This document shows positions 2,263 to 39,814 of a stretch of DNA of 43,866 bases, one piece after another; position 1 is the first letter of the stretch, and each line of letters starts with the position of its first letter. Both the position numbers and the translations under genes were made by a program. The DNA is from an uncultured Candidatus Saccharibacteria bacterium (GTDB lineage: Bacteria > Patescibacteriota > Minisyncoccia > Phycocordibacterales > UBA10002), in contig CAYIUC010000005.1 in the NCBI GenBank assembly GCA_964366535.1, positions 1-43,866 of the forward strand, given 5' to 3'. The notes under the pieces were generated by a model. The model saw only the letters and a program-made list of their open reading frames with translations. It was not told the DNA's origin and ran no database searches.

Positions 2263-2297
2263 ATTTTGTGTCGTAACTACAAGATACGAGCCGAAGG

Positions 2298-2326
2298 TTG
2301 CAAAGAAAAAGGTTTTGTGCTATACT
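2298..2326 (+). promoter_or_regulatory. promoter of the rpsO-NYN-pnp cluster
   Basis: TTGCAA at 2298-2303, a 17-nt spacer, and TGcTATACT with TATACT at 2321-2326. The ATG lies 10 nt downstream. Confidence 0.6.
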
Positions 2327-2336
2327 TTGACTTACT

Positions 2337-3127: not shown

Positions 3128-3153
3128 AAATCTTTTGTGCTACACTGTAGTGT

Positions 3154-5001: not shown

Positions 5002-5043
5002 TAATGCAATTCGCCATATTGTTGAATACGCTATAATAGGCGT

Positions 5044-9302: not shown

Positions 9303-9539
9303 ATGAAAGAAGAAATGCCACGCCGCCAATCGCTCTTTTGGGATGTGGACCCGAAAACAATTGACCCAGAAAAGCACGGCCGCTATATCATTGAGCGGAT
9401 TTTGGACTTCGGCGATGATGCGGAGGTGCGGTGGGTATGGCGATACTACGACCACGCGCTCATACGCGATGTGGTGCAGCGTTCGCGCGCGCTTTTCCCA
9501 GAAACGCGCTCTTTTTGGAACCTAATGTTTGCAACATAA
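9303..9539 (+). CDS. small conserved-looking protein upstream of the AbiEii-type gene (possible antitoxin partner)
   Basis: 78 aa. TGcTATAAT at 9287-9295 lies 7 nt upstream of the ATG. The stop is 5 nt before the next start. Confidence 0.55.
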   Translation: MKEEMPRRQSLFWDVDPKTIDPEKHGRYIIERILDFGDDAEVRWVWRYYDHALIRDVVQRSRALFPETRSFWNLMFAT

Positions 9540-9544
9540 ACAAC

Positions 9545-10256: not shown

Positions 10257-10270
10257 GGAAAAATACATAA

Positions 10271-10339
10271 ACCACCCCCTCTGTATCTCCCCCTTAATCA
10301 AGGGGGAGAAGCCCGAGCAGAGCGAGGGAGAGGGGGTGA
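10271..10339. repeat. nested G/C-rich palindromic element in the leader of the secreted-protein gene
   Basis: The outer arms CACCCCCTCT and AGAGGGGGTG pair perfectly. The inner hairpin is TCTCCCCCTTaatcAAGGGGGAGA. Confidence 0.85.
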
Positions 10340-10377
10340 TGTATTTTAGCAAGTTATTATTACGCAATAGCATAAGT

Positions 10378-12425: not shown

Positions 12426-12569
12426 CTCCCCCTCGGTTGAGGGGGAGTACTCCGACTTTAGTCGGAGGGAGGGGGTGGGTCAGCAAAACACCACCCCTCC
12501 GCTTCGCAGACTCAGCACCTCCCCTTAGGTAAAGGGCAGGTTAAAAGAGAGGCAGGGTGAGGGGGTGTT
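12426..12569. repeat. two adjacent G/C-rich palindromic elements
   Basis: 12426-12480 contains hairpins CTCCCCCTCggttGAGGGGGAG and CTCCGACtttaGTCGGAG. 12488-12569 has outer arms ACACCACCCCTC and GAGGGGGTGT. Both end in GAGGGGGTG. Confidence 0.8.
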
Positions 12570-12622: not shown

Positions 12623-14548
12623 ATGTCGCACCTAGACCAACTGAATCCGCGCCAGCGCGAGGCGGCAGAGCATCGCGACGGGCCGCTTCTCATTATCGCT
12701 GGCGCGGGGGCGGGCAAGACACGCGTGATTGCGCACAGAATTTTGCATCTTATACAAAGCGGAGTTGCGCCGGAATCCATTCTCGCGATTACCTTCACGA
12801 ACAAGGCGGCACAAGAGATGCGGGAGCGCGTATACACCCTATTATCATCAGACCGCGCCAGATGTTTGCAGCCCACAACATCTGGCGCGGGAGACACGGA
12901 AGAGCTTCCTTTCATCTCCACCTTTCACTCACTTGGAGCTACACTCCTCCGCAACCATCCAGAGATTGCCGGGCTACCAAAACGCTTCACAATCTTTGAC
13001 CGAGGCGACTCCGTGCGCGCGGTGAAAAAGGCGACTGCGCTTGCCGGCTTTGACCCGAAGAACTTTGAGCCGCCGAAAATACTTTCTGCAATCAGCCGCC
13101 AAAAAGGGGAGGGGGTTACTGCAGACGCCTTCGCAGAGCAAGCGAGCGACTTCTTCCCGCGCGTCGTGTCGCGCGTGTGGGACGCATACGAAAAGATTCT
13201 CGCCGAAGAAAAGGCGGTTGACTTCGATGACCTTCTACTCAAGACATCGCTTCTCTTAAAGAAAGAATCCGCGCTACGAGAGCGCTATCAAAACCAGTGG
13301 CGTTTCGTGCATATAGACGAATACCAGGACACAAACCGCGTGCAGTACGACATCGCACGCCTCCTTGCCGAGAGCCATCGCAACATTGCGGTTGTAGGCG
13401 ATGCGGACCAGAATATTTACCAGTGGCGCGGAGCATCTATGCGCAATATTTTGGACTTTGAAAAGGATTGGCCTAATGCAAAAGTGGTAACGCTTGAAGA
13501 AAATTACCGCTCCACGCAAACGATTCTAAACGCCGCCAATCGGGTGATTGAGAAAAACAAACACCGCCTACCGAAAACGCTTTTTACGAAAAACGGCGGC
13601 GGGGAGCCGATTGGGCTTTTCGCTGGGCTAGACGAAGCGCACGAAGCGCAGTTTGTCGCAAGCACTTCCCAAGCGCTCATTGCGCACGGCACTATGGCTA
13701 GGGAAATCGCCGTTTTGTTTCGCGCCAACTTCCAAAGCCGCGCGTTGGAAGAAGCGTTTCTCAATGCCGACATTCCGTACCAAGTAGTCGGCGTGCGATT
13801 TTTTGAACGAAAAGAAGTAAAAGACATACTTTCATATGTTCGTGCGGCACTAGACGCACAAAATACAGCTGATTTTGCGCGCATTGTGAATGTTCCAACG
13901 CGAGGAATCGGCAAAGTAACACTGCTGAAGATTCTTGCGGGGCGGGAAGGCGAACTGCCGTTTGGTATGCGGCAAAAAGTTTCCGGGCTCCGCGCACTTC
14001 TAGCCAAAATAAAAGAAAAACTTGAGCATGAACAGATTTCAGTCGCTCTGAAATATATTCTTACTGCAAGCGGGTTGGAAAAAACGCTTCGCGAGGGAAG
14101 TGAAGAAGACGAGGAGCGGCTCTTAAACATCCGCGAGCTTATTGTCTTTGCAATGCGCTATGACGCGCGGGAGGGGGAGCGCAGCACGCTTGTGGAAGCG
14201 TTTTTGCAAGACGCAGCACTCCAGAGCGACCAAGATGAACTGAAAGAAGAGAAGAACGCCGTTCGGCTTATGACTGTGCACGCCGCGAAAGGACTTGAGT
14301 TTGATATCGTGTTTATCACAGGTCTTGAAGACGGGTTATTCCCGCATGCGCGACTATTTGCCGAAAGCGTTACTGCGGAAGCTGCCGAAGAGGAACGGCG
14401 GCTTTTCTATGTGGCGCTTACTCGAGCAAAGAAAAAGGTGTACCTCTCATATGCCGGTATGCGGAGCGTATTCGGCTCGCGGCAAGCAAACCTCCCCTCG
14501 GAGTTTATCTTTGACATTCCGGAGGAATTGCTAGAAGCTGAAACCTAG
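12623..14548 (+). CDS. uvrD: UvrD/PcrA-type superfamily 1 DNA helicase
   Basis: Motifs AGAGAGKTRV, FTNKAA, VHIDEYQDTN, LEENYRST and VHAAKGLEF. I chose the start MSHLDQLNPRQ at 12623, with TATGCT at 12609-12614 lying 8 nt upstream. Confidence 0.9.
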   Translation: MSHLDQLNPRQREAAEHRDGPLLIIAGAGAGKTRVIAHRILHLIQSGVAPESILAITFTNKAAQEMRERVYTLLSSDRARCLQPTTSGAGDTEELPFISTFHSLGATLLRNHPEIAGLPKRFTIFDRGDSVRAVKKATALAGFDPKNFEPPKILSAISRQKGEGVTADAFAEQASDFFPRVVSRVWDAYEKILAEEKAVDFDDLLLKTSLLLKKESALRERYQNQWRFVHIDEYQDTNRVQYDIARLLAESHRNIAVVGDADQNIYQWRGASMRNILDFEKDWPNAKVVTLEENYRSTQTILNAANRVIEKNKHRLPKTLFTKNGGGEPIGLFAGLDEAHEAQFVASTSQALIAHGTMAREIAVLFRANFQSRALEEAFLNADIPYQVVGVRFFERKEVKDILSYVRAALDAQNTADFARIVNVPTRGIGKVTLLKILAGREGELPFGMRQKVSGLRALLAKIKEKLEHEQISVALKYILTASGLEKTLREGSEEDEERLLNIRELIVFAMRYDAREGERSTLVEAFLQDAALQSDQDELKEEKNAVRLMTVHAAKGLEFDIVFITGLEDGLFPHARLFAESVTAEAAEEERRLFYVALTRAKKKVYLSYAGMRSVFGSRQANLPSEFIFDIPEELLEAET

Positions 14549-14554
14549 CGCTTT

Positions 14555-14626
14555 GCGGAAGGCAAAATTTCGTCCTCTTTACCCTCTCTACGGGGGTCCT
14601 ACGAGATACGAAATTTCGCCTTCCGC
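14555..14626. repeat. 72-nt hairpin element, copy 1 (19-bp stem, conserved 34-nt loop)
   Basis: GCGGAAGGCAAAATTTCGT, then a 34-nt loop, then ACGAAATTTCGCCTTCCGC. The loop is identical to that of 30291-30362. The element lies between the uvrD stop and the rsmA start. Confidence 0.85.
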
Positions 14627-14654
14627 TTCGCGCTCAACGAGTTTTGTTATTATT

Positions 14655-17430: not shown

Positions 17431-17446
17431 ATTAACCGCCCAGAGA

Positions 17447-17526
17447 CAACCCCTCCTGCCTCCCCCAAGGGGAGGTTCTGACCCTCCCTTCCCTTTGGGG
17501 AGGGAGTAGGAGGGAGGGGTGGTGTG
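17447..17526. repeat. nested G/C-rich palindromic element
   Basis: Hairpins CCTCCCCcaaGGGGAGG and CCCTCCCttccctttGGGGAGGG lie within CCCCTCCT...AGGAGGGAGGGG arms. The element ends in GGGGTGGTG. Confidence 0.8.
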
Positions 17527-17614: not shown

Positions 17615-19705
17615 ATGCGTTGCAAACACATTACAACTCTGCTCATCGTCTCTCTTTTCGTAACTGGCTCGCTATTTACGCCGACGAAGCGCGCCCATGC
17701 GCTTGTGAGCTGTATTCCAGCCATCGCCCCTATTCCAGATATACCACTAGCCGTACCTGTACAAAACTTCGGAGAAATGACGCGGCAAAATATTGCCAAT
17801 ACTTTCAGTGCCTCCAATTTCACCAAAGAGTGCATTCTGGATGCGATGGTTACATTCCTCAAAGAAGCGCTGATACAAAACATCACCGGCTCCATTGTGG
17901 ATTGGATAAACAACGACTTTGAGGGCGGTCCGGCGTTCGTAACCGACCCCGCAGGGTTTTTCGTAAATATTGCCGACGAGACCGCCGGGCGGTTTATAGA
18001 AAATCAATTAGGTCCCATCGGACAACTGCTTTGCAGTCCGTTTGACTTGCGACTGCGTTTGAATCTTTGGCTTGCAACAAGCGCCTCGCGCAAGCAGTAC
18101 ATCGGCTGTCGCCTTACCGATGTGCAGATGAATGTGCACGATGCGTTTACACAAGGTTCGTTTATCGCTTCCGGCGGTTGGAAAACATTTAACGCAATAA
18201 CTTCCGACCCTCGCAACAACCAATACGGCGCGTTCCTCTACGCCTCGGACGCTCTTAACAATGAATTCGTCAAAAGGGCGAATGAAACACTTCGCGATCT
18301 CTCGTACGGTAGGGGATTTCTGTCGTTTAAAAAATGTTCTGAGTGGGTAGATGCATCAAGTGAGGGAACGGGCGAGGGGAGCGGAAAAAGATGCGCAAAA
18401 TACAAAGTGGAAACCCCTGGCTCTCTTATCAACAACCAACTAAATAATGCGTTCGGCTCGGAATTGCGCAAATTTGAGTTGGCGGACGAAATAAACGAGG
18501 TGTTTCAAGCGCTTGTAAACTATGGGCTTCGGCAAGTGTTTACAGCGACAGGCGGCGGACTCCGTGGCGCGAGCAAGGCGGCGGCGGGACAAGAAAGCGC
18601 GGCGTCGCGCCTGCGAAGGTCAGAGGGTACGATAATGAACGAGGTATATGCAAACACGCAAACCGACACAACCGGTGGATTTATAACTACAAAATATGAT
18701 TTGGCTTCTAAGGACGACAATACGCTCACAAAAGTTGTGGCGGAAACAAAATCAGGAAGCGCGGGCGGCAGTAATGGAGAGCGGTTGTCGCCAGACCGAA
18801 ATCTTGCGCTTAATAGGCCGGCATCACAATCGGGATATTATGCCTTACCGCGCTATGATGCCGACAAAGCAGTCAATGGAGGCAAGGACGCGGTCAAGGG
18901 CGATTGTTATGGCTTCAACTGCGCCGCAGTAACCTCCAAATCATCCCCGATATACTGGGAAGTTGCGCTAGGGAAAACATATTCCATAAAAGAAGTGTGG
19001 ATACACAAGGCAAACGACCTTTCTTATGATGCAGCGTTGGGGACATTTAAACTTTCTATCTTAAAGCCGGACCGCGGTATCGCGTACACGAAAGAAGTTG
19101 CGGCCAATTCTGCCACTGCGATTCCACTCGTGATGCCGAACATCAATACCGCTGGCGCGATTGTGCGCATTGAGCGCGCGAATGGAGACGAACTTGCGCT
19201 TGCAGAAGTAGAAGTGTACGGCACGGAATGGGAGACGGCGACTGCAAACACGCCGCCGCCAACTGGCGTTACCGCTCCTCCACCTAGTGCAACTCCAGTG
19301 GTTTCGGTACAACGAAATGTGGAACTGAAAATTGACGGTCCGGTATTTACCATCAATGAACCGATCGTAAATGCGCATATAGGCATCTCAATGGACCAAC
19401 AAGTGGGTACGACATACAAGCCGTTTGCGCCACAGCAAGCGTTTTCAAAAATCCTCGTGCGGGTAAAAAATCAGGAAACGGGTGTGGAGAAGTTTACTGA
19501 GGAGTTTACCAATACGGAAATAAAAACATACCGCACCACCCAAACCTTTAGTGCCACGGCGGGAGAAAAAATAACCGTCGGATACGAGTTTACTCCACAA
19601 AGCGGCGCAAAGGGAAACTACGCGCTTAACACCGAAATAATCGGCTCGGATGGAAATCAGGTTCCCGGTGCCGTAAGCACAATGAGAATTCAAGCACCAA
19701 ATTAA
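17615..19705 (+). CDS. secreted protein with a C-terminal F5/8 type C (discoidin)-like domain; first gene of the T4SS-like operon
   Basis: Signal peptide MRCKHITTLLIVSLFVTGSLFTPTKRAHA. Discoidin-like block: NLALNRPASQSGYY...AVNG...YWEVALGKTYSIKEVWIH...LALAEVEVYG. Confidence 0.6.
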   Translation: MRCKHITTLLIVSLFVTGSLFTPTKRAHALVSCIPAIAPIPDIPLAVPVQNFGEMTRQNIANTFSASNFTKECILDAMVTFLKEALIQNITGSIVDWINNDFEGGPAFVTDPAGFFVNIADETAGRFIENQLGPIGQLLCSPFDLRLRLNLWLATSASRKQYIGCRLTDVQMNVHDAFTQGSFIASGGWKTFNAITSDPRNNQYGAFLYASDALNNEFVKRANETLRDLSYGRGFLSFKKCSEWVDASSEGTGEGSGKRCAKYKVETPGSLINNQLNNAFGSELRKFELADEINEVFQALVNYGLRQVFTATGGGLRGASKAAAGQESAASRLRRSEGTIMNEVYANTQTDTTGGFITTKYDLASKDDNTLTKVVAETKSGSAGGSNGERLSPDRNLALNRPASQSGYYALPRYDADKAVNGGKDAVKGDCYGFNCAAVTSKSSPIYWEVALGKTYSIKEVWIHKANDLSYDAALGTFKLSILKPDRGIAYTKEVAANSATAIPLVMPNINTAGAIVRIERANGDELALAEVEVYGTEWETATANTPPPTGVTAPPPSATPVVSVQRNVELKIDGPVFTINEPIVNAHIGISMDQQVGTTYKPFAPQQAFSKILVRVKNQETGVEKFTEEFTNTEIKTYRTTQTFSATAGEKITVGYEFTPQSGAKGNYALNTEIIGSDGNQVPGAVSTMRIQAPN

Positions 19706-19708: not shown

Positions 19709-21652
19709 ATGAAAAAACTTATTATCATCGTTTTGTTGCTCGGCATCGCACTCGCTCCGGTGGGCGGGGGGGTGGCTTTTGCAGTGGAAACCGGCGGAAA
19801 TGCCCCGCAAACAAACGGCGAGGTGAATGGCGGGTGCGGGATGTTTTCTATAGGCGACTGCATCACCTTCTTTATTGCCCAAATGGGCAATATGGTAATG
19901 ACGCTTGTCTCTAGCGTGCTCAGTATAGCGGGCGCGGCGCTGAACTTCTCGGTGGACCTTACCGTCAATATGAGCGCGTTTCTTGCAAAGGTAAAAATTG
20001 TGGATGTGGGGTGGAAGATAATGCGCGATATTGCAAACCTTTTCTTCATCTTCATACTCCTCTGGGTCGGAATACGCACTATTTTGCAAATGGGAAGCGA
20101 CAACGAGGTGCGTAAGACGCTTCTATGGGTAGTAGTAATGGCACTTCTTATAAACTTCTCGCTCTTTATCACCAAAGCGGTGGTGGATATGGGAAACATT
20201 GCAACACTCCACTTCTACGACGCTATGCGCCCCGACCTATATGAGAACGGGCAACCAGTAAAGGATGCGCAAGGAAAACAAGTAAAGGCGGGTCTTTCCG
20301 ACATATATATGGAAGGGCTAAAAATGCAGACCTTTATGGGGAGCGGTAGCTCTGTGAACAACTTAGTCGCAACTGCAGGCGGCTTCACCAACCAATTTAT
20401 CAAAATTGGGTTGGTAACAATTCTCGGCTCCGTCTTCTTCCTTGTGGCGGCGTTTGTTTTCTTCGCCGCCGCATTTCTCTTTATCGGTCGCGCGGTTGTG
20501 CTTATGTTCCTTATGTTACTCTCGCCACTCGCATTTGCGGCGCAGGTGATACCAAGCATGCAGGGACAAGCTAAGCGTTTTTGGGATACACTTCTCAAAC
20601 AAACCTTCTTCGCTCCGCTCTATATGGCGCTCACTTATGTCGTGGCCAAGGCAATACAAAGTAACGGATTTTCGGACCTTACCAACATTACCGGCAACCA
20701 AGCATCGTTTGCCGCGCTCCTTACTGGCGAACCGTCTGACAATATCGGCATTGTTGTCAACTACATCTTCCTCATCGGCGCGATGGTGTACACGCTCGTT
20801 ATCGCAAGCCAGGGTGGCGCGTATGGAAGCAAGATGGTCATCGGCTGGGGCAAATCGCTCCAAGGGTGGGGGCAGGGGCTCGTTACAGGTGCCGCGGGAG
20901 GGGTTGCCGCGCGCGCTTTGGGCGGTCTTTCCAAGGCGGCGACGGGCGGCTTGTCGGGAACCACGAGTGCCTTTGGGCGCGCGGCGCTCCGCACTGCCGA
21001 CCGTTTGCAAAATATGAAAATCGGCGGCAAGTCATACAAGGAGATGCAAGAGAAGGGGACTTTCTTTGGAGTGGGGGAGGAGGAGATAGAACGAAACATG
21101 AAGCAGTTTAAGAGCCGACCGCAAGAACAAGCGGCGTACCTCTCGCGACTTTCCGAAGGCCAACGGCGTAAGGCATATGAGAAGTTGTCGGCACGAGATA
21201 GGGTTGCAATTGAGCGTACTGGCGTATTGCAACAAGCGCAGATAAACGATATGTATGGACGCCTCAATCCAGAGGAGCGTGACAAGGTTGACGAGGCGCG
21301 ACGCAAGGTACGACAAGAAGAGGGTAATGAACAACGAATGGCTACCGTGGAAACAATCACTGCGGTTCCAGTTGGTACGCCGCTTACTGCCGACCAAATA
21401 ACAGCGGTTACTCAACTCCGCCCAAATCAAGCGCGCGATCTTTCACACGAAGCGCGTACAAACCCTGAAATTATTCGCCGTTTGCGTCCACAACACCTAC
21501 GCGATTTGATGGAAAATGGAAACCTACTTCCGGATGAAATACAGGCAATAATGAATGAGATAGGAGTAGTGGGTGCACCGATAACATATCCAGCGCAGAA
21601 TGCCCAACGCACTTATGTTCAAAATCCGGCAAATGCGGTCTTATGGACGTAA
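19709..21652 (+). CDS. polytopic membrane protein, VirB6/TrbL-like
   Basis: 647 aa with a signal peptide, at least six hydrophobic helices and a charged cytoplasmic tail. The start is 3 nt after the upstream stop. Confidence 0.5.
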   Translation: MKKLIIIVLLLGIALAPVGGGVAFAVETGGNAPQTNGEVNGGCGMFSIGDCITFFIAQMGNMVMTLVSSVLSIAGAALNFSVDLTVNMSAFLAKVKIVDVGWKIMRDIANLFFIFILLWVGIRTILQMGSDNEVRKTLLWVVVMALLINFSLFITKAVVDMGNIATLHFYDAMRPDLYENGQPVKDAQGKQVKAGLSDIYMEGLKMQTFMGSGSSVNNLVATAGGFTNQFIKIGLVTILGSVFFLVAAFVFFAAAFLFIGRAVVLMFLMLLSPLAFAAQVIPSMQGQAKRFWDTLLKQTFFAPLYMALTYVVAKAIQSNGFSDLTNITGNQASFAALLTGEPSDNIGIVVNYIFLIGAMVYTLVIASQGGAYGSKMVIGWGKSLQGWGQGLVTGAAGGVAARALGGLSKAATGGLSGTTSAFGRAALRTADRLQNMKIGGKSYKEMQEKGTFFGVGEEEIERNMKQFKSRPQEQAAYLSRLSEGQRRKAYEKLSARDRVAIERTGVLQQAQINDMYGRLNPEERDKVDEARRKVRQEEGNEQRMATVETITAVPVGTPLTADQITAVTQLRPNQARDLSHEARTNPEIIRRLRPQHLRDLMENGNLLPDEIQAIMNEIGVVGAPITYPAQNAQRTYVQNPANAVLWT

Positions 21653-21658: not shown

Positions 21659-22702
21659 ATGAAATTTACACATACACAAGCCCTAGAATCTCTTAACAAA
21701 CTCCCGCAAGAGACGCGCGAGCGCGTCACTTCGCAAGAAATAACCGACGCGACTATTCGTATCGCGGAAAGAAATGTAGTTCCAAAAGAAAAGATCCTTG
21801 CTTTTAGTTCTGCAGTAGGAACTGTACTACTCGGTTTGATTCAAAAAGAAAAACTTGCCGAGCAGTTGGTTGCAGAGTTGCAACTGCCGCCAGAAAAAGC
21901 CGCCGCGATTGCGGGGGAGGTGGAGAAAGAGATTTTTAATAGTTCTCCCTCTGCCCCTTTTTCAAAGGGGAAGTCCCCGAGTCCGTCTAAGGCGGACGAG
22001 GGGGTAGGGGTTGGTCACGCACAAGGCATACCCCTCCGCCCCGCCCCGCCAGTCGGCGAGGCGGGGCACCTCCCCTCTCAAAGAGGGGAGGGGGAACAAA
22101 AACAAATTTCTCCCCCTCGCCCCGTCCCCATCCGCAAGCCACTACCCCCTCTTGCTCCCTCCCTTTTGGGGAGGGCGGGGGGAGGGGTTGTACCCTCTCT
22201 CCAATCCCTCCTCGCCGACATTCGCCGCGGCACGGCATACGACGAGAATCGTATAGCCGATGCCTTCCGAAAAACGCCGATTGAAGTCAAGCAGTCGCTA
22301 GAGAGTGTCGGGTTTCTATCACGAATGGAAGGCGTTGCGAAAAAGTTTGGTTTAAATGTGGAAGAAACTGGGGAGCTCGTGAGCGAGTCGGGGCTCGTAA
22401 TGCTCGGGCTAACACAACCAATGAACTTCGTAGACAATCTCACGAAACGATTGCGACTGCCGCGCGACCGCGCGATGGCGGTAGGGCAAGCGGTAAATAT
22501 GGAGGTACTGCGCCCAGTGCGGGAAATTTTGCGGAAGATGAGTGTGCCGTCGGAGGAGCTGCGATTTGCGCCGCCCGCCACCCCTGCTCCTTCACAAAAT
22601 CCTCCCCCAACCCCCTCCTTTAGTAAAGGAGGGGGCGGAGGGGGCGGATTTTCTCCAGTGCAAAAATACACTACCGACCCCTACCGCGAACCAATAAACT
22701 AA
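21659..22702 (+). CDS. hypothetical protein with two homologous ~60-aa modules separated by a repeat-element-derived Pro/Gly linker
   Basis: IAERNVVPKEK...GTVLLGLIQ...LQLPPEKAAAIAGEV aligns with VAKKFGLNVEE...GLVMLGLTQ...LRLPRDRAMAVGQAV. The linker at 21945-22191 consists of palindromic elements. Confidence 0.6.
   Translation: MKFTHTQALESLNKLPQETRERVTSQEITDATIRIAERNVVPKEKILAFSSAVGTVLLGLIQKEKLAEQLVAELQLPPEKAAAIAGEVEKEIFNSSPSAPFSKGKSPSPSKADEGVGVGHAQGIPLRPAPPVGEAGHLPSQRGEGEQKQISPPRPVPIRKPLPPLAPSLLGRAGGGVVPSLQSLLADIRRGTAYDENRIADAFRKTPIEVKQSLESVGFLSRMEGVAKKFGLNVEETGELVSESGLVMLGLTQPMNFVDNLTKRLRLPRDRAMAVGQAVNMEVLRPVREILRKMSVPSEELRFAPPATPAPSQNPPPTPSFSKGGGGGGGFSPVQKYTTDPYREPIN
21945..22191. repeat. 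three tandem G/C-rich palindromic elements, in frame in a CDS
   Basis: Copies at 21945-22016, 22031-22097 (opposite arm order) and 22108-22191. Each contains CCCC...GGGG hairpins. Confidence 0.8.
22596..22652. repeat. 57-nt nested palindrome (AAAATCC-type element) in frame in a CDS
   Basis: AAAATCCTCCCCCaaCCCCCTCCTTTAgTAAAGGAGGGGGcgGAGGGGGcGGATTTT. It is translated as NPPPTPSFSKGGGGGGGFS. Confidence 0.85.
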
Positions 22703-27975: not shown

Positions 27976-29193
27976 ATGCAAAACAAAACCAAAAAAATAA
28001 TCTGGGGGGTTCTGATTGTACTACTAGCGGCGGCTGGAGCATTTGCGTATTGGTGGTTCTTTATGCGTCCCAGTGCCGAAGTTGCCGTGAGTGAGCCCGT
28101 GACATTTCCAACAGGAGAAAATATCGGCATCGACGAAGGTAGTCCAGAGTTGCTCGGCGGACAAGGCAATATCGGGATAGAGGAAGGAGAGGCCCCGCTC
28201 CTACGGCAACTTACCAAAAACCCCGTTGCTGGAGCAGTAATTTTCTCGCGCGCCGGCTCTACACTCGTGCGCTATGCCGAGCGCGGCACTGGGCATTTAT
28301 TTGAAATCGGCGCAGACGATGCCGAACCAAAACGCATCTCCAACCAGACAATTCCAGAAATCGGCGAGGTGCTTTGGAAGCCAGATGGGTTGGGTATTAT
28401 CGTACGCTACGCAAAGGAATCGGCGGGTACGGAATACATTGAGAGTTTTTATGCAAGCGTTCCCGCCGACGCTACAGAAGACGCGCCGCTCCGCGCATCT
28501 TTCCTCCCGCGCAATATCCGAACGCTTGCGTTCTCGCCTACCGGCAATACGCTCTTTTATCTTTCGGAAAACTCTTCCGGCTCCTCCGGTATTCTCGCTG
28601 CGCCCGACGGCACGCGCAAAAACACCTTGTTTGAACTGCCTCTAAAAGATCTTGCAGTAATATGGTCGGTAAACGATTCGCTCTTCCTCACGACGCGCGC
28701 GTCGTCGGGCGCTCCCGGGCACCTCTTCTCTGTCGGTACACAAAGCGGAGCAGTTGATGTTGTCGCAAGCGACACTGGGCTCACAGCGCTTACAAGCCGA
28801 GGAGGAACTCTAGCGCTTCTTGCATCAAGCGGGGAAGGCGGCTCGGGTCTTTCGCTCTTTAATCGCTCTTTGGGAGACATAACACCGCTCGGGCTACAAA
28901 CACTCGCCGATAAGTGCGTATGGGGCAAGCGTACGCGCACAAACGCATATTGCGCGGTACCAAGCGGAATACCAGGAAACAACTTCCCCGATAGTTGGTA
29001 CCAAGGGGTTATACAAACAGAAGACGCTTTGTGGGCAATTGATGCCGAAGACGCGCGCGCTTCTATTGTCGCAGACATAAGCGAGGTTGCGCGTGAGAGC
29101 ATTGATGCTTTTAATTTTGATATCAGCCCAGACGACAAATATCTACTTTTCCAAAACAAAAACGATTTAAGCTTGTGGCTGCTTAAGATTTAG
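27976..29193 (+). CDS. membrane-anchored beta-propeller-like (TolB/PD40-like) protein
   Basis: I prefer the start MQNKTKKIIWGVLIVLLAAAGAFAYWWFF at 27976. Repeated segments of the type LAFSPTGNTLFYLSE and WKPDGLGIIVRY are present. Confidence 0.55.
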   Translation: MQNKTKKIIWGVLIVLLAAAGAFAYWWFFMRPSAEVAVSEPVTFPTGENIGIDEGSPELLGGQGNIGIEEGEAPLLRQLTKNPVAGAVIFSRAGSTLVRYAERGTGHLFEIGADDAEPKRISNQTIPEIGEVLWKPDGLGIIVRYAKESAGTEYIESFYASVPADATEDAPLRASFLPRNIRTLAFSPTGNTLFYLSENSSGSSGILAAPDGTRKNTLFELPLKDLAVIWSVNDSLFLTTRASSGAPGHLFSVGTQSGAVDVVASDTGLTALTSRGGTLALLASSGEGGSGLSLFNRSLGDITPLGLQTLADKCVWGKRTRTNAYCAVPSGIPGNNFPDSWYQGVIQTEDALWAIDAEDARASIVADISEVARESIDAFNFDISPDDKYLLFQNKNDLSLWLLKI

Positions 29194-29935
29194 AGACACC
29201 CGATGTTTGCCGCCTATCAACATCGGGTGTCAGGCGGCGCCGCACTACAACCTCCTGCACAATCGCAAAAAGGTTAGAAGTGGTCCAGTAGAGCGCGACT
29301 GCGCCGGAGATGGTATATGCAGCGATTGCCGCCACAATCGGCATTACATACTTCATTTGCATATGCATACCGTGCATCAACTCCCCTTGAAATGATCCGT
29401 CGCGCGAGCCGGGAGTCGGTGGCGGCATAACTAACTTTACCTGGAAAAATTGCGTGATGCCGGCAAGCGCCGCAAGAAAGATACTTTTCCCAGCAATGTC
29501 TATAAGACCTAAAAATTCCATATTCACTTCTGGGCGTGGGATAAAGGAGTAGCGAAGCGCCTCGTTGATGTCTGGGAGCCCGCCGCGAAAGAACACATAG
29601 TAGAGCGAAATAATAACAGGAAGTTGTATAAGAAGAAGGAAAAACCCCGCGAACGGGTTGATGCGCTTTTCTTTGTAGAACGCCATCGTAGCGCGCGCGT
29701 ACCCCTCGCGGTCGCCATCAAATTTCTTTTTTAGCGCGTCTAGCTCTGGTTGGAACTTACGCATAGCAAATTGCGTTTCAATAGAGCGTTTAGAGAGGGG
29801 AAAGAGTATAAGCTTCACCGCTATTGTGAGGATAATAACCGCGAGACCGGCATCAGCTCCCGGTAGAATGTCCATCAAAAAAACCAACCCATTATAGAGC
29901 GGTTGGTAGAATACTTCCTTAAACAATTCTAGCAT
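29183..29935 (-). CDS. yidC: membrane protein insertase YidC/Oxa1 (short form)
   Basis: 250 aa with GLAVIILTIAVKLILFPLSKRS...MRKFQPELDALKKKF. It lies downstream of rnpA as in the canonical operon. Confidence 0.9.
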   Translation of the reverse strand: MLELFKEVFYQPLYNGLVFLMDILPGADAGLAVIILTIAVKLILFPLSKRSIETQFAMRKFQPELDALKKKFDGDREGYARATMAFYKEKRINPFAGFFLLLIQLPVIISLYYVFFRGGLPDINEALRYSFIPRPEVNMEFLGLIDIAGKSIFLAALAGITQFFQVKLVMPPPTPGSRDGSFQGELMHGMHMQMKYVMPIVAAIAAYTISGAVALYWTTSNLFAIVQEVVVRRRLTPDVDRRQTSGVSKS

Positions 29936-29953
29936 TTGCTTATCGTAGCAAAA

Positions 29954-30280
29954 TTAACGCTCGCCGTACACTTCAGAAAGCGCTTTTTGTATCGCCGCAA
30001 ACGAAGCGCCTACTCCACCTTTGGTAACCATTACCACCGATGCGGTATACGCTTGCATGCTTGCTAAATTGGCGTATAACGCCTCGTAGAAGCGGCGGCG
30101 CGCCAAGTTGCGTGCGACCGCAGTCGCCGCCGCTTTTTTTGACACAACTACGGCGCATTTCGGCTTTTCGCTATCTGTATTGTATAGCCGTATGCTAAAT
30201 AAAGGCGAATGGAAAACTCTAAGCGGCCTTCCGAGGCGCTTAAACTCCGCAATAGTGATGCGATTTATTTTTTTTAGCAT
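29954..30280 (-). CDS. rnpA: ribonuclease P protein component
   Basis: 108 aa with motifs VVSKKAAATAVARNLARRRF. It lies downstream of rpmH. Confidence 0.85.
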   Translation of the reverse strand: MLKKINRITIAEFKRLGRPLRVFHSPLFSIRLYNTDSEKPKCAVVVSKKAAATAVARNLARRRFYEALYANLASMQAYTASVVMVTKGGVGASFAAIQKALSEVYGER

Positions 30281-30290
30281 GTGTCACTTC

Positions 30291-30362
30291 GCAGAAAGCG
30301 GAATTTTTTCCTCTTTACCCTCTCTACGGGGGTCCTACGAGATAAAAAATTCCGCTTTCTGC
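30291..30362. repeat. 72-nt hairpin element, copy 2 (perfect 19-bp stem, conserved 34-nt loop)
   Basis: GCAGAAAGCGGAATTTTTT, then a 34-nt loop, then AAAAAATTCCGCTTTCTGC. It fills the rpmH-rnpA spacer. Confidence 0.85.
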
Positions 30363-30366
30363 TTCG

Positions 30367-30501
30367 TTACACCGTAAGACGCTTACGACCTTTCTGCCTG
30401 CGGCGAGCGATTACGCGCTTTCCGGAGGTGCGGCTCATACGCGCGAGGAAGCCGTGCGTCCTCGCGCGCTTTTTCTTCTTTGGTTTGTAGGTAAAGCTCA
30501 T
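30367..30501 (-). CDS. rpmH: 50S ribosomal protein L34
   Basis: My own translation gives [44 protein letters not shown]. The ORF is below the track length cutoff. Confidence 0.9.
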
Positions 30502-30616
30502 AGAAAATGTTGTACACCGGCTGTACACATATTATTAACACAACGGGGCTTTCCGCGCAACTTACGCGCTCGCCGTAGCGCGCTATACTTCTGTAATTGC
30601 CGCACTCGCAAAAAAT

Positions 30617-31963
30617 ATGATGCCAAAACAATTATGGGATAGCGCGCTTGTGGAAGTTGGGTTGTCTGTGTCCAAAGCGAACTTCCAAACATGGTTTAAA
30701 GATACCGCCATTTCCAGAATGGAAGACGGTGTGGCGTATCTTGCTGTGCCAAACGCTTTCGTGCGCGACTGGCTTTCTGACAAGTACCACAAGATGATTA
30801 TGCATGCATTGCGCGGCCTATCGGAGAGCGTTCGCTCTGTAGAGTATGTAATCTCTAAAGACGAGCCGAAGAAGGCGCTAGAAGCGGCGGCGTGGGTACC
30901 TGGGGTTACCCAAGGAAACAACGAGTTGCCGCTTAAAGAGCATTATATAAATAAAGAAAGCAACTTAAACCCGCGCTACACATTTGATTCTTTTGTAGTC
31001 GGGCCTTTCAACGAACTAGCGCACGCCGCAGCGCAAGCGATTATGAAAAAACCCGCCGTGTACAATCCGCTCTTTTTTTACGGCAACACCGGGCATGGAA
31101 AGACGCACCTCATTCAAGCCGTTGGGAACCATCTAGCCAAAGCAGACCCGTCAAAAAAAGCGTTTTATATCACCTCGGAAAAGTTTCAGATTGAGTTTGT
31201 CGCAGCGATGCAGGCAAACCGCATAAACCAATTTAAAGAAAAGTACCGCGTGTACGACCTGTTTATAATGGACGACATACAATTCCTTTCGGAAAAATGG
31301 AAGACGCAAGAAGAACTTTTTCATCTCTTCAATACGCTCTACGAAAACAACCGTCAAATTATATTTTCTGCAGATGTGCATCCAAATTTCATCTCTGATA
31401 TTCAAGACCGCCTAAAGTCGCGCTTTGCATCCGGTATGGTAGTAGACCTGCCGGCACCCGACTTTGAGTCGCGCATCGCCATCTTACAATCAAAAGCAAA
31501 ACAAGCCGGATTCCAAATGTCACTTGATACAGCGCAGTATCTAGCAGGAATTATAGAAGGGAATATTCGCGAACTGGAGGGACTTCTCAATGCTATTGTA
31601 TGCAATTCACAGTTAAAGGGTAGGGAACTTACGCTAAATGAAGTAAAGGGGATTGTAAAGGCAAACGAAAAACCAAAGAAAACAACTTCGGTTAAAGATG
31701 TCTTGCGTGTAATTTCACATTTTTACCAAATAGAAGAGAGTAGTATTTATGAAAAGACGCGGCGAAAGGAAGTGGTGCGCCCTCGGCAAATTGCAATGTT
31801 TCTACTTCGTGAAGATTGCAGTGTGTCGTACCCGCTAATAGGGCAGAAATTAGGCGGGAGAGACCATACTACGGTTATACATTCGTATGAGAAAATAAAA
31901 GAGGAGTTAAAACATAACAGCGAATTGGAACAGGAGATCAAACAATTGCGCGCAATGTTGTAG
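30617..31963 (+). CDS. dnaA: chromosomal replication initiator protein DnaA
   Basis: Walker A GNTGHGKTHL, Walker B LFIMDDIQF, and the C-terminal DNA-binding motif GGRDHTTVIHSYEKI. Confidence 0.95.
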   Translation: MMPKQLWDSALVEVGLSVSKANFQTWFKDTAISRMEDGVAYLAVPNAFVRDWLSDKYHKMIMHALRGLSESVRSVEYVISKDEPKKALEAAAWVPGVTQGNNELPLKEHYINKESNLNPRYTFDSFVVGPFNELAHAAAQAIMKKPAVYNPLFFYGNTGHGKTHLIQAVGNHLAKADPSKKAFYITSEKFQIEFVAAMQANRINQFKEKYRVYDLFIMDDIQFLSEKWKTQEELFHLFNTLYENNRQIIFSADVHPNFISDIQDRLKSRFASGMVVDLPAPDFESRIAILQSKAKQAGFQMSLDTAQYLAGIIEGNIRELEGLLNAIVCNSQLKGRELTLNEVKGIVKANEKPKKTTSVKDVLRVISHFYQIEESSIYEKTRRKEVVRPRQIAMFLLREDCSVSYPLIGQKLGGRDHTTVIHSYEKIKEELKHNSELEQEIKQLRAML

Positions 31964-32171
31964 TGGGGAAAAGATATAGAAAGATTGTGGAAAAGTTAAT
32001 TATAAAAAATATAAAACGAAAATATCCCAGTTATATTCAAAGATACAACAAAGATATGAACATCAAAAAAGAAAAAATAAGCAATAAATATAAATATAAA
32101 ATGCGTTTTTCCACATATACACATAACCATACTCATACTCTTAATCTTTATTTACTAAAAATATAAATACT
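31964..32171. other. candidate oriC / DNA unwinding region in the dnaA-dnaN spacer
   Basis: A strongly AT-rich 208 bp spacer. Two inverted near-consensus DnaA boxes occur: TGTGGAAAA at 31986-31994 and TTTTCCACA at 32107-32115. A/T tracts lie between them. Confidence 0.5.
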
Positions 32172-33269
32172 ATGAAAGGAGAATGTTTCAAAGATAAACT
32201 AGAACAGGCGATGCGGCACGCAAGCCGTATGACCAGCAAAAACCCATCTCTTCCTGTGCTTGCCTGCGTGCTAGTAGAGGCAAAGAAGGGGTCGCTTCTT
32301 GTGCGCGCCACCAACATAGATGTGTCTTACGAGGCAAGCGTACCTGCACGCGTTGAGAAAGATGGAGTTGTCGCTCTTTCCGGCGCGGCGCTTACTTCGT
32401 TTTTGTCCGGATCTTCGGCGCAGAATATTTCTTTTAGTTCTACAGCTGGAGGTATATCGGTGCGCGTAGGAAACTCAAACGCAACATTCAAAGTGTTTCC
32501 TCACGAGGATTTTCCAAATTTTTCGCACCCGAAAGAGTCCGCAAACCAAATTCCTGTGTCGCAAGTGCTTTCTGGCCTAAAGTCGGTACTCTACAGCGCT
32601 TCCATGTCGTCGGTGCGCCCAGAACTTTCCAGTATTTATATATTTTCAGAGGGGAATGGCGTGGTGTTTGTGGCAACCGACTCTTTCCGCCTTGCGGAAA
32701 AGCACATAACACTTCAGAAAAACATTCAGTTTACACCGACACTTGTGCCCGCCAAAAACGCATCGGAACTTCTGCGTGTGCTTTCTGAAATGGAGCAGGA
32801 ATTATGTTTTGTGTCTAGCGAAAAAGGTCAGTTTGCGGTGCAAGGTGGAGGAATGCTCTTTACCTCGCGGACCATAGACGGCTCATTTCCCGACTACAAG
32901 CAAATTATTCCAAAGGATTTTGTAACGACCATTACCATCTTAAGAGATGATTTTCTAAAGGCGCTTCAACTTATTGCCGGGCTTTCCGAAAAATCAAACC
33001 AGATTGTTCTCAATGTGCCGAAGGAGGAGGGTGAGATTTCTTTGTTTGTGAAAAACGCAGAGGTGGGGGAGGGGACGAGCAAAATAAAAGCGGCTGTTTC
33101 CGGTGAGCCGTTTGAGATGAGCTTCAACGCGAGATATCTCTTGGACTGCCTAAACGCTATTTCCGAGCCGTCCGTATCGCTCTTATTCTCAGGCGCTGCA
33201 AAACCATTGATGCTCACAGGCACAGGCAACGCCTCCTTCCGCTACATCGTAATGCCGATGAATAGGTAG
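32172..33269 (+). CDS. dnaN: DNA polymerase III beta sliding clamp
   Basis: 365 aa with a three-domain layout and a C-terminal ...RYIVMPM motif. It lies immediately downstream of dnaA. Confidence 0.9.
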   Translation: MKGECFKDKLEQAMRHASRMTSKNPSLPVLACVLVEAKKGSLLVRATNIDVSYEASVPARVEKDGVVALSGAALTSFLSGSSAQNISFSSTAGGISVRVGNSNATFKVFPHEDFPNFSHPKESANQIPVSQVLSGLKSVLYSASMSSVRPELSSIYIFSEGNGVVFVATDSFRLAEKHITLQKNIQFTPTLVPAKNASELLRVLSEMEQELCFVSSEKGQFAVQGGGMLFTSRTIDGSFPDYKQIIPKDFVTTITILRDDFLKALQLIAGLSEKSNQIVLNVPKEEGEISLFVKNAEVGEGTSKIKAAVSGEPFEMSFNARYLLDCLNAISEPSVSLLFSGAAKPLMLTGTGNASFRYIVMPMNR

Positions 33270-35833: not shown

Positions 35834-37036
35834 ATGGAGAAAATAAATACTAATAGGATAGCAATAGAACAGGCCACAGAACGAAGCATCGCGACGATCT
35901 TACCTTCGCGTGAGGCGCTCATAAACGAATTGATGAGCGGAAAGAAAATGAAGTTTTACATTGGATGCGACGCAACGGGTCCAGATTTGCACATAGGGCA
36001 TGCAACAAATTTTCTTTTGCTTGAACGTTTGAGGAAACTTGGCCATGAAATCATTGTTCTCTTTGGAGATTTTACTGCGCGCATTGGAGACCCTACAGGG
36101 AGAGATACGGAACGCAAAATGCTTTCTGAAGCAGAGGTGGGGGAGAATATATCGAATTGGACACATCAGGTTGGCCGTGCGCTTAATTTAAATGATGCGC
36201 ATAATCCTGTGCGCATAGAAAAAAATAGTTCGTGGTTGGGGAAACTTGGTTTTGCAGAAGTGCTTGATCTCGCATCTTCGTTCACCGCACAGCAAATGAT
36301 TGAGCGCGACATGTTCGAGAAAAGGTGGAAGAATAAAAAACCGATTTATCTGCACGAGTTTTTGTATCCATTAATGCAGGGCTATGACAGTGTTGCGCTT
36401 GGGGTGGACGGTGAAGTGGGGGGGAACGATCAGACATTCAATATGTTGACCGGCAGAACATTGCTCAAGAAATACAAAAACACAGAAAAGTTTGTGATTG
36501 CAACAACGCTCTTAATCAATCCAAAGACGGGGAAAAAGTTGATGAGTAAAAGCGAAGGCCGATATGTCGCTCTCTCAGCGACGCCGCATGATATGTTTGG
36601 CGGTGTAATGGCTCTCCCAGATGAGGCAATCAGCCAGTTATTTATTGACTGCACCGAAGTTCCAATTACTGAAGTTGGACAATGGGAACAAAAATTAAAA
36701 GACGGCGTCAATCCACGCGATGTCAAAATACACCTTGCTACAGAAATAGTGACTCGTTTCCATAGTCGAACAGACGCCGAGAAAGCGCGCGCAAGCTTCC
36801 GCGCAACATTTGGCGAAGGCAGGCCACAGGAGTTTGTAGATGTGCCGCAAGCAAGCGCAGTGGAAACACTTCTTGAAAATGGGATTATTACTTCAAAGAC
36901 CGACCTACGCCGACTCATTGCAGAGGGTGCGGTAACAGAAGTCGGAAGCGGCAAAAAGCAGGGGGAGGATTTTCTGAAAAATCCTCCCCCTGGGGAATAC
37001 CGGCTCGGCAAGCACCGCTTTGTGCGGATTGTTTAG
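35834..37036 (+). CDS. tyrS: tyrosine--tRNA ligase
   Basis: HIGH motif (LHIGHATN), KMSKS-like motif (KLMSKSEG) and a C-terminal S4-like domain. I prefer the start MEKINTN at 35834, with TACTAT at 35821-35826 lying 7 nt upstream. The track ORF starts at 35825. Confidence 0.85.
   Translation: MEKINTNRIAIEQATERSIATILPSREALINELMSGKKMKFYIGCDATGPDLHIGHATNFLLLERLRKLGHEIIVLFGDFTARIGDPTGRDTERKMLSEAEVGENISNWTHQVGRALNLNDAHNPVRIEKNSSWLGKLGFAEVLDLASSFTAQQMIERDMFEKRWKNKKPIYLHEFLYPLMQGYDSVALGVDGEVGGNDQTFNMLTGRTLLKKYKNTEKFVIATTLLINPKTGKKLMSKSEGRYVALSATPHDMFGGVMALPDEAISQLFIDCTEVPITEVGQWEQKLKDGVNPRDVKIHLATEIVTRFHSRTDAEKARASFRATFGEGRPQEFVDVPQASAVETLLENGIITSKTDLRRLIAEGAVTEVGSGKKQGEDFLKNPPPGEYRLGKHRFVRIV
36961..36990. 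repeat. perfect 13-bp-stem palindrome inside tyrS, related to the AAAATCC-type element arms
   Basis: GGGGGAGGATTTTctgaAAAATCCTCCCCC, which encodes GEDFLKNPPP. Confidence 0.8.
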
Positions 37037-37679: not shown

Positions 37680-37836
37680 ATTGGTAGTGTAGCAAGTTAT
37701 CGGGCGGTTTTTAAATCCATCCCCCGGCCCCTTCCTTTACAAAGGAAGGGGAAAAATGCAACACACAGGAACATTAATTAAATCTTTACTATAAAACATA
37801 TATTTTATATAATGTAGAAATTAAAAGTTAAAAAAA

Positions 37837-38064
37837 GTGAGTATGAATAATTTTGCAAAAGAGCAAACGAATAAAGAAGTTGTAGGTTTTGGTAGGGTTT
37901 TGAGAGGTTTTCTTATATTTTGTGTTATTTGGTGGGTATTGATGGGCTTTTCTATTATATTTATATCCCCAAATATATGGTTAGCTGGGGTTGTTTTCTT
38001 GGCGGGTGCAGGATATCTTGGATACCGTTTGTGGGGGAAGAAAAAGAATAAAATTGTTAGTTAG
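37837..38064 (+). CDS. small two-TM membrane protein (islet gene)
   Basis: 75 aa with the hydrophobic helices FLIFCVIWWVLMGFSIIFI and LAGVVFLAGAGYLGY. AT-rich codon usage. Confidence 0.45.
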   Translation: MSMNNFAKEQTNKEVVGFGRVLRGFLIFCVIWWVLMGFSIIFISPNIWLAGVVFLAGAGYLGYRLWGKKKNKIVS

Positions 38065-38070
38065 AGTAAT

Positions 38071-38427
38071 ATGGTTCTCATCTACAACCAAAAACTTAAA
38101 CCCAGAGCCCGTGAATTAAGAAAAAATCAGACACCCGCAGAAGCGTTGTTGTGGGAACAAATCAGAGGTAAAAAAATTAAAAATTGCCAATTTGTTAGGC
38201 AAAGAGCGATCGCTAGTTTTATTGTTGATTTTGTGTGCCTACAGTCAAAGTTGGTGATAGAAATTGACGGACCAATTCATCTGCAACATAGAAACACCGA
38301 TACTTTTCGTCAGGAACAACTAGAGTTGCTCGGATTTAGAGTTTTGCGTTTTTCTAATAAAGAAGTTGAGGCAGATATTAACTCAGTGATTGGAGTGATT
38401 GCTTGGAATTTAAATCCAACCTCCTAG
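38071..38427 (+). CDS. DUF559 / Vsr-like endonuclease-domain protein (islet gene)
   Basis: Contains RELRKNQTPAEALLWEQIRGKK...QFVRQ...IVDFVC...LVIEIDGPIH...R...L...GFRVLRFSNKEV. Its last codons run into the flanking repeat. Confidence 0.7.
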   Translation: MVLIYNQKLKPRARELRKNQTPAEALLWEQIRGKKIKNCQFVRQRAIASFIVDFVCLQSKLVIEIDGPIHLQHRNTDTFRQEQLELLGFRVLRFSNKEVEADINSVIGVIAWNLNPTS

Positions 38428-38474
38428 CCCCCCTTCCTTTATAAAGGAAGGGGGGGTGGGGGGATGGATTTTTC

Positions 38475-39807: not shown

Positions 39808-39814
39808 AATCTGC

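Follow-up and report, generated by a model that had tools for sequence, protein, structure and literature searches.

A directional two-tier palindromic repeat in a Saccharibacteria contig and its possible relation to DUF559 nuclease genes

Several known systems act on DNA that is recognized as a folded single strand, among them the hairpins of repetitive extragenic palindromes (REPs), which are recognized by RAYT enzymes, the ends of IS200/IS605 elements, and the bottom strands of integron attC sites. As for enzymes, the I-Bth0305I family comprises free-standing and intron-borne homing endonucleases with a Vsr-like fold, and DUF559 is among the commonest uncharacterized small nuclease families of bacteria. 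Rickettsia palindromic elements (RPEs), finally, were reportedly described by Ogata et al. in 2000. Herein, we discuss a repeat that can be compared with all of these, namely a two-tier palindrome at positions 22596-22652 of a 43,866-nt stretch of DNA from an uncultured Candidatus Saccharibacteria bacterium of groundwater (contig CAYIUC010000005.1; the whole stretch is called the window below). It is read in-frame within the open reading frame (ORF) 21659-22702, and relatives of it bound a DUF559 gene elsewhere in the window. It is well supported that this focal element is a directional repeat, maintained in its structure, turning over at orthologous sites, and tolerated in-frame in linkers. 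We are evenly divided on the further reading that it is a selfish palindrome akin to REPs, RPEs, or MITEs (transposable elements of the miniature inverted-repeat type), and constitutes the miniature, gene-less form of DUF559-bearing elements.

The focal element (AAAATCCTCCCCCAACCCCCTCCTTTAGTAAAGGAGGGGGCGGAGGGGGCGGATTTT, plus strand) is translated within its ORF as NPPPTPSFSKGGGGGGGFS. Its outer stem pairs AAAATCC (22596-22602) with GGATTTT (22646-22652), followed by an unpaired position (position 7; T22603 opposite C22645) and a second-tier stem of CCCCC (22604-22608) with GGGGG (22640-22644). An asymmetric internal loop, AA (22609-22610) against CGGA (22636-22639), then leads to an inner stem of 12 bp, formed by CCCCCTCCTTTA (22611-22622) and TAAAGGAGGGGG (22624-22635). 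Folded as single-stranded DNA, 22596-22652 gives a two-tier hairpin of -22.2 kcal/mol (z -5.55), which none of 200 shuffles equaled, and the stretch 38405-38478, containing another full copy, reaches -25.6 kcal/mol (z -6.66). Sequence, fold, and translation hence agree with the two-tier palindrome that a preliminary description of this DNA had placed inside the ORF, and the computed folds agree with the hairpin formation for which it had suggested testing. The family pattern AAATCC-N7-17-CCCYTCCTTTA-N1-2-AAAGGARGGG occurs at three loci of the window (22597, 37713, and 38412; five strand matches) and in none of 100 dinucleotide shuffles. An Rfam search of the window and of 14 family loci found no family covering the element.

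Comparison of copies from different genomes yields a consensus of AAATCC, one base, a C-run, and then CCCC(T)TCCTTTA-loop-AAAGGA(A)GGGG; among the listed matches, the shared module is made up of AAATCC, one base, the C-run, and the core hairpin. The module measures 36-41 nt and the full form 49-64 nt (36-65 nt for the family as a whole), with folds of z -5.6 to -6.7. Of the 20 distinct full copies that we parsed, taken from the window as well as from other genomes, 17 have position 7, next to AAATCC/GGATTT, unpaired (T·T in 15 and T·C in 2) and 3 have it paired; a T·T read from one strand is an A·A when read from the opposite one. Among the strand-wise matches at fetched loci that have a right arm downstream, the position is non-Watson-Crick in 46 of 47, and a Thermodesulfobacteriota genome has T·G. 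Furthermore, the 3' (right) spacer is longer than the left in every parsed full copy; together with the unpaired position 7, this means that the element is no true palindrome and has a direction. The pyrimidine (C) arm comes first in all true members, a polarity that is identical on both strands and unchanged by inversion. The lengths of the C-run and G-run co-vary across parsed copies, and the Y/R pair of the core appears 97 times as C-G, 40 times as T-A, 4 times as T·G, and twice as C·A. Together with the pairing in an orthologous copy discussed below, this covariation indicates that the stem structure of the family is kept.

A scan of species-representative genomes with the family pattern returned at least 117 stretches of near-identical sequence in five or more phylum-level groups, a count that is not a probability, as copies within one genome are not independent. 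Further copies, for which the preliminary description suggested looking, are hence plentiful. L-numbers below denote fetched loci or contigs, and the taxonomy of metagenome-assembled genomes (MAGs) is taken from record titles. The hosts among the listed matches, to which the following counts also refer, include Patescibacteria (Parcubacteria, Taylorbacteria, and Saccharibacteria), many Dehalococcoidales/Chloroflexi MAGs, Smithella, and several Acinetobacter species, cultured isolates included; one Thermodesulfobacteriota MAG and one Sericytochromatia MAG have at least 10 fetched loci each. Full two-tier forms are found mainly in Patescibacteria; in other lineages the module lies within longer lineage-specific repeats, some of which have two inner hairpins inside the same outer arms. 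One copy (L022) differs from the focal one at 3 of 55 nt and sits at an unrelated locus, in a genome whose housekeeping proteins are about 71-78% identical to those of the window (compared via its contig L007). In three Acinetobacter species (L013, L043, and L066) the AAATCC module occupies the same locus, flanked by truA-like and AraC-like regulator genes (ORFs read by eye). Viral contigs gave 0 matches in the family-pattern scan, and a BLAST search of plasmids with the 57-mer gave none either, for which low-complexity masking is possibly responsible.

Most of the listed copies (108 of 124) are intergenic. The others include in-frame copies, which fall between domains: one separates Transket_pyr from Transketolase_C in transketolase, one follows the 5'-3' exonuclease domain of PolA, one precedes Gp_dh_C in GAPDH, and one is part of the tail in a type IV secretion system coupling protein. 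Where the ORF is long and credible (the window, L061, L096, and L107), the element is read in one orientation and one frame, as N-P-P-P-x-P-S-F-I/S-K-E/G-G; four of the six frames are open across it (sequence read by eye), and a half element in GAPDH (L039) uses a different frame. A search of proteins with a tandem profile of the element peptide returned eight candidates, none of them scoring.

No Pfam family matches the gene in which the focal copy resides, and PrgI-like, TraC-like, and VirB4-like genes follow downstream of it. Ten orthologues share three conserved blocks with hypervariable linkers between them, and these linkers are mosaics of small C-first hairpins that differ among orthologues (in the first variable linker of the window gene, 21947..22093, they lie at 21951-21973 and 22067-22093, plus strand). 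Presence and absence of the element can be read from two orthologues: one of 51% identity (L005) carries it at the corresponding position, matching 53 of the 57 window bases, and a 64%-identical one (L006) is without it and has other hairpins at that site. The differences between L005 and the window are mainly in run length, and position 7 is a paired A-T in L005 vs the T·C mismatch of the window. The best-conserved block of the gene is only 75% DNA-identical in L005. The element is conserved there as nucleotide sequence; conservation at the amino acid level alone, which would have spoken against a mobile element, is hence not what we find.

Turnover of related hairpins can be seen at further sites. 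A second family of C-first two-tier hairpins, the 'PSLLGRAGGGV' type, is present in the same ORF at 22145..22190 (CTCCCTCCCTTTTGGGGAGGGCGGGGGGAGGGG, plus strand), with a related copy at 5239-5275 within ORF 5044, a contig of which cross-matches; it follows the PPRPVPIRK motif in the window and L005 and precedes it in L006. At the ORF 5044 site, a contig syntenic with window 195-5982 (L099; 74-84% protein identity) carries an AAATCC-family copy in the orthologous gene, and the window carries a different compound palindrome.

Within the source population, the element is present in all four contigs examined (L001-L004). We considered the divergent 5' end of L003 as a candidate empty site and rejected it as an assembly chimera at the GC-rich repeat: unrelated sequence (L003:1-109) begins exactly at the GC-rich hairpin region (window ~22030). 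Logan contigs stop at hairpins as well, and both observations imply that the elements break short-read assemblies. Contigs from four groundwater runs, which are heavily fragmented and break at hairpins, contained no precise deletion or insertion variant; they did show the 5240 copy (family B) and, in another part of the community, one additional copy of the AAATCC type.

The other two family loci of the window lie together, between ruvC (37176-37679, minus) and yebC (38475-39008, minus), which are 795 bp apart. The half element at 37710..37751 (plus) consists of the AAATCC left arm (37713-37718), a C-run, and the core hairpin CCCCTTCCTTTAcAAAGGAAGGGG (37728-37751). It has no right arm, just as the preliminary description had it, and forms the left boundary of a cassette, 31 nt from the ruvC start codon. 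The cassette interior (37752..38408, plus) has 33.9% GC vs 49.8% for the window and contains TTTACT-17-TATAAT (37785-37813), which resembles a promoter, ORF75 (37837-38064), predicted to encode a small membrane protein, and most of the gene for a DUF559 (Vsr-like, PD-(D/E)XK) endonuclease of 118 aa (38071..38427, plus). The latter matches Pfam PF04480 with E 6e-34 (116.6 bits, cut-off 20.6) and the PDB entry 3HRL, an 'endonuclease-like protein', with E 3.5e-16. The right boundary is a full element at 38409..38473 (plus), situated between the convergent 3' ends of DUF559 (plus) and yebC (minus). It had been described as a complete non-coding copy; it is complete, but not wholly non-coding, since the DUF559 ORF has its last six codons and TAG stop within the left arm of the element, the right end of which directly adjoins the stop codon of yebC (38475-38477).

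In the syntenic contig of Parcubacteria Gr01-1014_17 (L007), a single nucleotide (1 nt) separates ruvC from yebC, and both the element and DUF559 are absent; two other contigs (L009 and L127) have the half element, DUF559, and full element in the same layout at the same site. Low GC, the cassette-free L007, and the flanking copies together indicate that the insert is a foreign cassette, bounded by direct repeats of left arm plus core. A further DUF559 gene, in a Saccharibacteria MAG (L055, which is also the source of L039), has core plus right arm as a direct repeat on its two sides; it appears to be frameshifted (L055:1715-2062; two tblastn pieces in different frames), with the flanking element copies kept. 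The transposase or RAYT-like gene that the preliminary description envisaged was not found: the 44-kb window holds neither of these nor an integrase, and DUF559 is its sole associated nuclease gene.

The association between DUF559 genes and hairpins extends to a sample of 76 distinct metagenomic DUF559 genes, whose products share 38-67% identity with the protein of the window. Within 200 nt of these genes, the density of C-first homopyrimidine/homopurine hairpins is 4.1/kb, 28-fold that of 0.15/kb farther away, and none lies inside the 76 genes; such a hairpin is found upstream of 52 genes, downstream of 47, and on both sides of 35. G-first hairpins near the genes reach 0.21/kb and are not similarly enriched, nor are mixed GC hairpins (2.75 vs 2.39/kb). 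At 14 loci CTCAYCCC lies upstream and GGGRTGAG downstream, vs 2 in the reverse order, so that here the DUF559 gene sits inside a two-tier palindrome. Since AAATCC arms were found only around the closest relative (L127), different DUF559 lineages have different arm families. The gene lies between direct repeats at 18 of 65 loci and in none of the shuffled controls; two examples are a 41-nt copy of the sequence where the downstream gene starts (L154) and a 133-nt repeat (L157).

Some of these loci deserve a separate remark. In L154 (Ga0209521_10001302, ~1880-2400), the downstream gene (valS by eye) is interrupted by the DUF559 cassette a few codons after its start, and the 41-nt duplication that flanks it covers the ribosome-binding site and first codons of that gene; by eye, the DUF559 ORF is seemingly fused to the duplicated start, reading through the upstream hairpin. 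At L135:2376-2511 and L133:916-1024, 3' of DUF559, there are five to six repeats of the right-arm motif GGGGTGAGG, with a period of 27 nt.

How an element of this kind might spread can be pictured as follows. A disordered linker of ORF 21659 would tolerate the focal repeat, which is read there as a peptide rich first in Pro and then in Gly, and the larger form of the repeat would have the same outer arms and inner hairpins enclosing a DUF559 gene, as at 37710-38473. The element would first extrude as a single-strand hairpin or cruciform, in which the unpaired base next to AAATCC/GGATTT (T·T, T·C, or T·G) and the asymmetric loop would mark one strand. The DUF559 nuclease would then nick the extruded structure, and the break would be repaired by copying an element-bearing template, spreading either the whole cassette or the palindrome alone. 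Intergenic copies could later be co-opted as terminators or 3'-end stabilizers. By analogy with the hairpin systems named at the outset, the unpaired base and asymmetric loop suggest that a folded single strand is recognized. The best-known Vsr-like relative cuts at a mismatch, which, with the Vsr-like fold of DUF559, makes the latter a natural candidate for the nuclease. We infer DUF559 to be the mobilizing enzyme, the hairpin its substrate, and copying during repair the route of spread; what ties DUF559 to the element is the cassette architecture (in three related genomes and one Saccharibacteria), the polarity-specific hairpin enrichment, and the lack of a transposase nearby.

More tentatively, and with the balance tipping to the negative, DUF559 nucleases at large might be the enzymes of widespread, undescribed hairpin-based selfish elements, both gene-bearing and gene-less, that spread inside phyla as well as across them. 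With the same reserve, two-tier palindromes that are always pyrimidine-first and have a conserved unpaired base might seed Pro/Gly linkers in essential proteins and form a nuclease-driven counterpart of REP-RAYT.

A number of observations weigh against a selfish palindrome mobilized by DUF559. Outside the window, a DUF559 gene is near only 2 of about 120 family loci (fetched stretches of at most 8 kb), and clustering the neighbors of about 120 copies gave no recurrent gene in Dehalococcoidales, Thermodesulfobacteriota, Sericytochromatia, or Acinetobacter. The Acinetobacter copies stand at conserved loci, which suggests vertical retention rather than recent movement, and the site shared with L005, an orthologue of 51% identity, is explained by long retention, and possibly by function, as well as by mobility. 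For a solo copy, neither a clean empty site nor a target duplication was recovered. The three ruvC/yebC cassettes probably go back to one inherited insertion and not to three events, and this locus is the only one in the source population at which the exact DUF559 protein occurs.

We consider it unlikely that the hairpins are mainly RNA or transcription signals (terminators, often bidirectional, or 3'-end stabilizers) that are kept by selection, with mobility secondary or absent; equally improbable, in our view, is that the in-frame copy in ORF 21659, near the gene end, tunes the downstream PrgI/TraC-like genes. The idea draws on the composition of the element, as the focal stem is GC-rich with an A-run on its 5' side and a T-run on its 3' side, and on its gene context. 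Among the listed matches, 30 copies lie between convergent gene ends (enriched) and 9 between divergent starts (depleted), and 38409-38473 sits exactly where the 3' ends of DUF559 and yebC converge, which makes it a plausible candidate for a bidirectional terminator. Orientation is biased relative to transcription: of 9 copies inside ORFs, 8 have the T-orientation on the sense strand, and of 13 intergenic copies, 10 have it on the strand of the upstream gene. Retention in L005 and in Acinetobacter would also follow from selection. On the other hand, the sequence of a terminator does not normally stay conserved from phylum to phylum, in-frame copies in transketolase, GAPDH, and PolA would do harm if they terminated transcription, and a simple consensus terminator scan called none of the family elements, whose T-run belongs to the outer stem. 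The unpaired base and the DUF559 cassette boundaries are also left unexplained. A terminator or stabilizer role for intergenic copies is nonetheless likely and compatible with a selfish origin; by itself it leaves the coding copies and the cross-phylum conservation unaccounted for.

The enzyme may, alternatively, not be DUF559. The palindromes could be moved by an enzyme encoded elsewhere in the genome, for example a RAYT/IS200-like single-strand transposase, which strikes us as improbable; we think no better of the companion idea that DUF559 genes are independent selfish genes that land or survive in hairpins, for example as palindrome-targeting homing endonucleases. REP-RAYT and IS200/IS605 systems do use imperfect hairpins with a conserved 5' tail, most family copies are without a DUF559 gene nearby, and DUF559 cassettes also occur in non-palindromic sites with long duplications, as in L154 and L157. 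However, no such transposase was found in the window or next to any of the roughly 120 copies, and the recurrence of CTCAYCCC/GGGRTGAG around DUF559 in many metagenomes suggests that the arms travel with the gene.

A third explanation does without transfer altogether: template-switching during replication would perfect quasi-palindromes in place, in Pro/Gly-coding DNA or in runs of purines and pyrimidines. An example is tyrS, where a palindrome at 36959..36992 (plus; CAGGGGGAGGATTTT-ctga-AAAATCCTCCCCCTG) has 15-nt arms of 100% complementarity (z -6.30), with the G-arm first. It replaced four codons with no change in length relative to 36 orthologues, is confined to a sub-clade, and its new arm is the exact complement of the GEDFLK-coding arm that was already there. 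The two arms read GAT...AAT in the window, GAC...AGT in L009 (a compensated pair), and GGC...AGT in L210 (a G·T pair); L007 and L211 have only the left arm-like GEEFLK/GEAFLK coding sequence. A compensatory AGC codon that had been predicted for tyrS of L210 was not found, the G·T pair standing in its place. Most simply, judging from these alignments, the tyrS palindrome arose in place, one arm being copied from the other. The variable linkers of the ORF 21659 orthologues, being mosaics of small hairpins, could be taken in the same sense. For the main family, however, we reject an origin in place as very unlikely, since it cannot yield the same 40-55-nt sequence at unrelated loci in different phyla and does not account for the shared TCCTTTA/TAAAGGA, the AAATCC tail, and the asymmetries.

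The relation of tyrS itself to the family is doubtful. The 13-mer AAAATCCTCCCCC occurs exactly at 22596, 36961 (minus), and 36978, and tyrS shares AAAATCCTCCCCC(TG) with the family arms, so that 13-15 nt of arm sequence are in common and the architecture is not. The preliminary description had counted tyrS as a relative; the shared arm stands, and an inserted copy is rejected on account of the unchanged length, the opposite polarity, and the in-place origin. The identity of the arms may be due to chance or to a short conversion from an element. The broader proposal of the preliminary description, a structured mobile or recombinogenic element in coding and non-coding contexts, is supported by the many genomes, the turnover at sites, and the cassette boundaries, and not by tyrS.

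The weakest explanation, that the palindrome is a mere by-product of selection for a flexible Pro-rich, then Gly-rich linker, could appeal to the complementarity of Pro (CCN) and Gly (GGN) codons and to the position of the focal copy in a variable, probably disordered linker, and we reject it as scarcely credible, because the same nucleotides recur in non-coding DNA (37710, 38409, and most of the 124 listed copies), the S-F-S-K core of the focal copy (TCCTTTAGTAAAGGA) is likewise palindromic, and the nucleotides of the element are conserved more strongly than the surrounding linker.

The window and its relatives contain several other repeats. An inverted-repeat element with ~27-nt arms (GCGCTTTGCGGAAGGCAAAATTTCGT / ACGAAATTTCGCCTTCCGC) around a 34-nt center is present at 14547-14634 and 30281-30372, with a related form just 3' of tyrS in Gr01-1014_17 (L007:11215-11300); it is probably what the preliminary description called its first element type. 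Dense inverted and direct copies of TAAAGGACA / TGTCCTTTA fill 2074-2266, between the genes for the CCA-adding enzyme and an NYN-domain protein, and include a perfect 25-nt palindrome at 2193-2243. Other C-first compound palindromes lie at 5196-5280, 10262-10347 (-26.6 kcal/mol, z -7.1), 12426-12447, and 17444-17526, with outer arms CCACCCC(C)TC...GAGGGGGTGG around one or two small hairpins; one is in-frame in ORF 5044-5982 and three are intergenic, beside large surface-protein genes. In L007, a ~62-nt unit of three mini-hairpins (GTCTCCCTACGGGAGAC, CCCCCTTnnAAGGGGG, and CCTCCCTTGAGGGAGG) occurs twice within 1.5 kb (19553-19614 and 21001-21061), one copy being intergenic and the other inside the polA reading frame.

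As for the genes of the window, yidC, rnpA, dnaA, and dnaN (29183-33269) are in classic origin-region order; the cumulative GC skew of this region has no turn, and the AT skew changes sign at ~32-34 kb, where gene orientation switches. A gene for an AbiEii-type nucleotidyltransferase toxin (9431-10207) and a weak HigB-like toxin match (39535-39888) are small accessory genes on an otherwise housekeeping and type IV secretion-like contig.

Within the literature that could be searched, we found no description of the element sequence or of candidate-phyla palindromic repeats of its kind, and nothing that links DUF559 to palindromes. If the link is true, DUF559 is the nuclease of a selfish hairpin element, the REP-RAYT paradigm would gain a second class of enzyme, and the Pro/Gly 'hairpin peptides' at predicted protein ends and inside enzymes of candidate-phyla bacteria would be explained. 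A 40-nt sequence that is near-unchanged across phyla, with a conserved unpaired base, also makes for a very specific, testable substrate. In practical terms, such elements not only disrupt short-read assembly but also inflate ORF calls.

In comparison with known systems, the family comes close to the REP/BIME elements, whose enzyme is RAYT (TnpA-REP). Both are short imperfect palindromes with a conserved 5' tail and a conserved stem imperfection, mostly intergenic (in the family, among the listed copies), often at gene 3' ends, and directional, with a nuclease-type gene flanked by the repeat; the family also has the imperfect palindrome of 20-40 bp in a stable hairpin by which REPs are recognized. 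Unlike REPs, however, which carry a GTAG or CGTC tail, every copy starts with AAATCC and neither tag is present. The family is also two-tiered, with homopyrimidine 5' arms and homopurine 3' arms, and it flanks a Vsr-like PD-(D/E)XK nuclease (DUF559), whereas REPs flank a Y1 transposase. Finally, its sequence is conserved across phyla, as that of REPs is not, and it also occurs in-frame in genes. The latter is shared with RPEs, palindromic repeats that are found in-frame in genes, housekeeping genes included, where an extra peptide is tolerated. RPEs are ~100-150 bp long, confined to Rickettsia, and without a known associated gene, whereas the present family (compared by description, not by sequence) is 36-65 nt long, spans several phyla, and bounds DUF559 cassettes.

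The outer arms, AAA(A)TCC...GGAT(T)TT, serve as terminal inverted repeats in the manner of MITEs such as Correia and ERIC, and the gene-bearing form (arm-hairpin-DUF559-hairpin-arm) relates to the gene-less one as an autonomous element does to its miniature. Unlike MITEs, the family has no transposase parent and no short target duplication (none is visible at ~20 full copies), and the duplications at DUF559 cassettes are long (41-133 nt). Integron attC sites are likewise imperfect palindromes bounding gene cassettes; their extrahelical bases give strand choice, and position 7 and the asymmetric loop could act alike, but the family is without RYYYAAC/GTTRRRY core sites, an integrase (in the window), or a cassette array. 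Vsr-like homing endonucleases, lastly, resemble the ruvC/yebC cassette in being small nuclease genes between conserved host genes, foreign in composition and missing from a syntenic relative, as DUF559 is here. What sets the family apart from them is that its gene is embedded in a structured palindrome, of which gene-less copies are dispersed.

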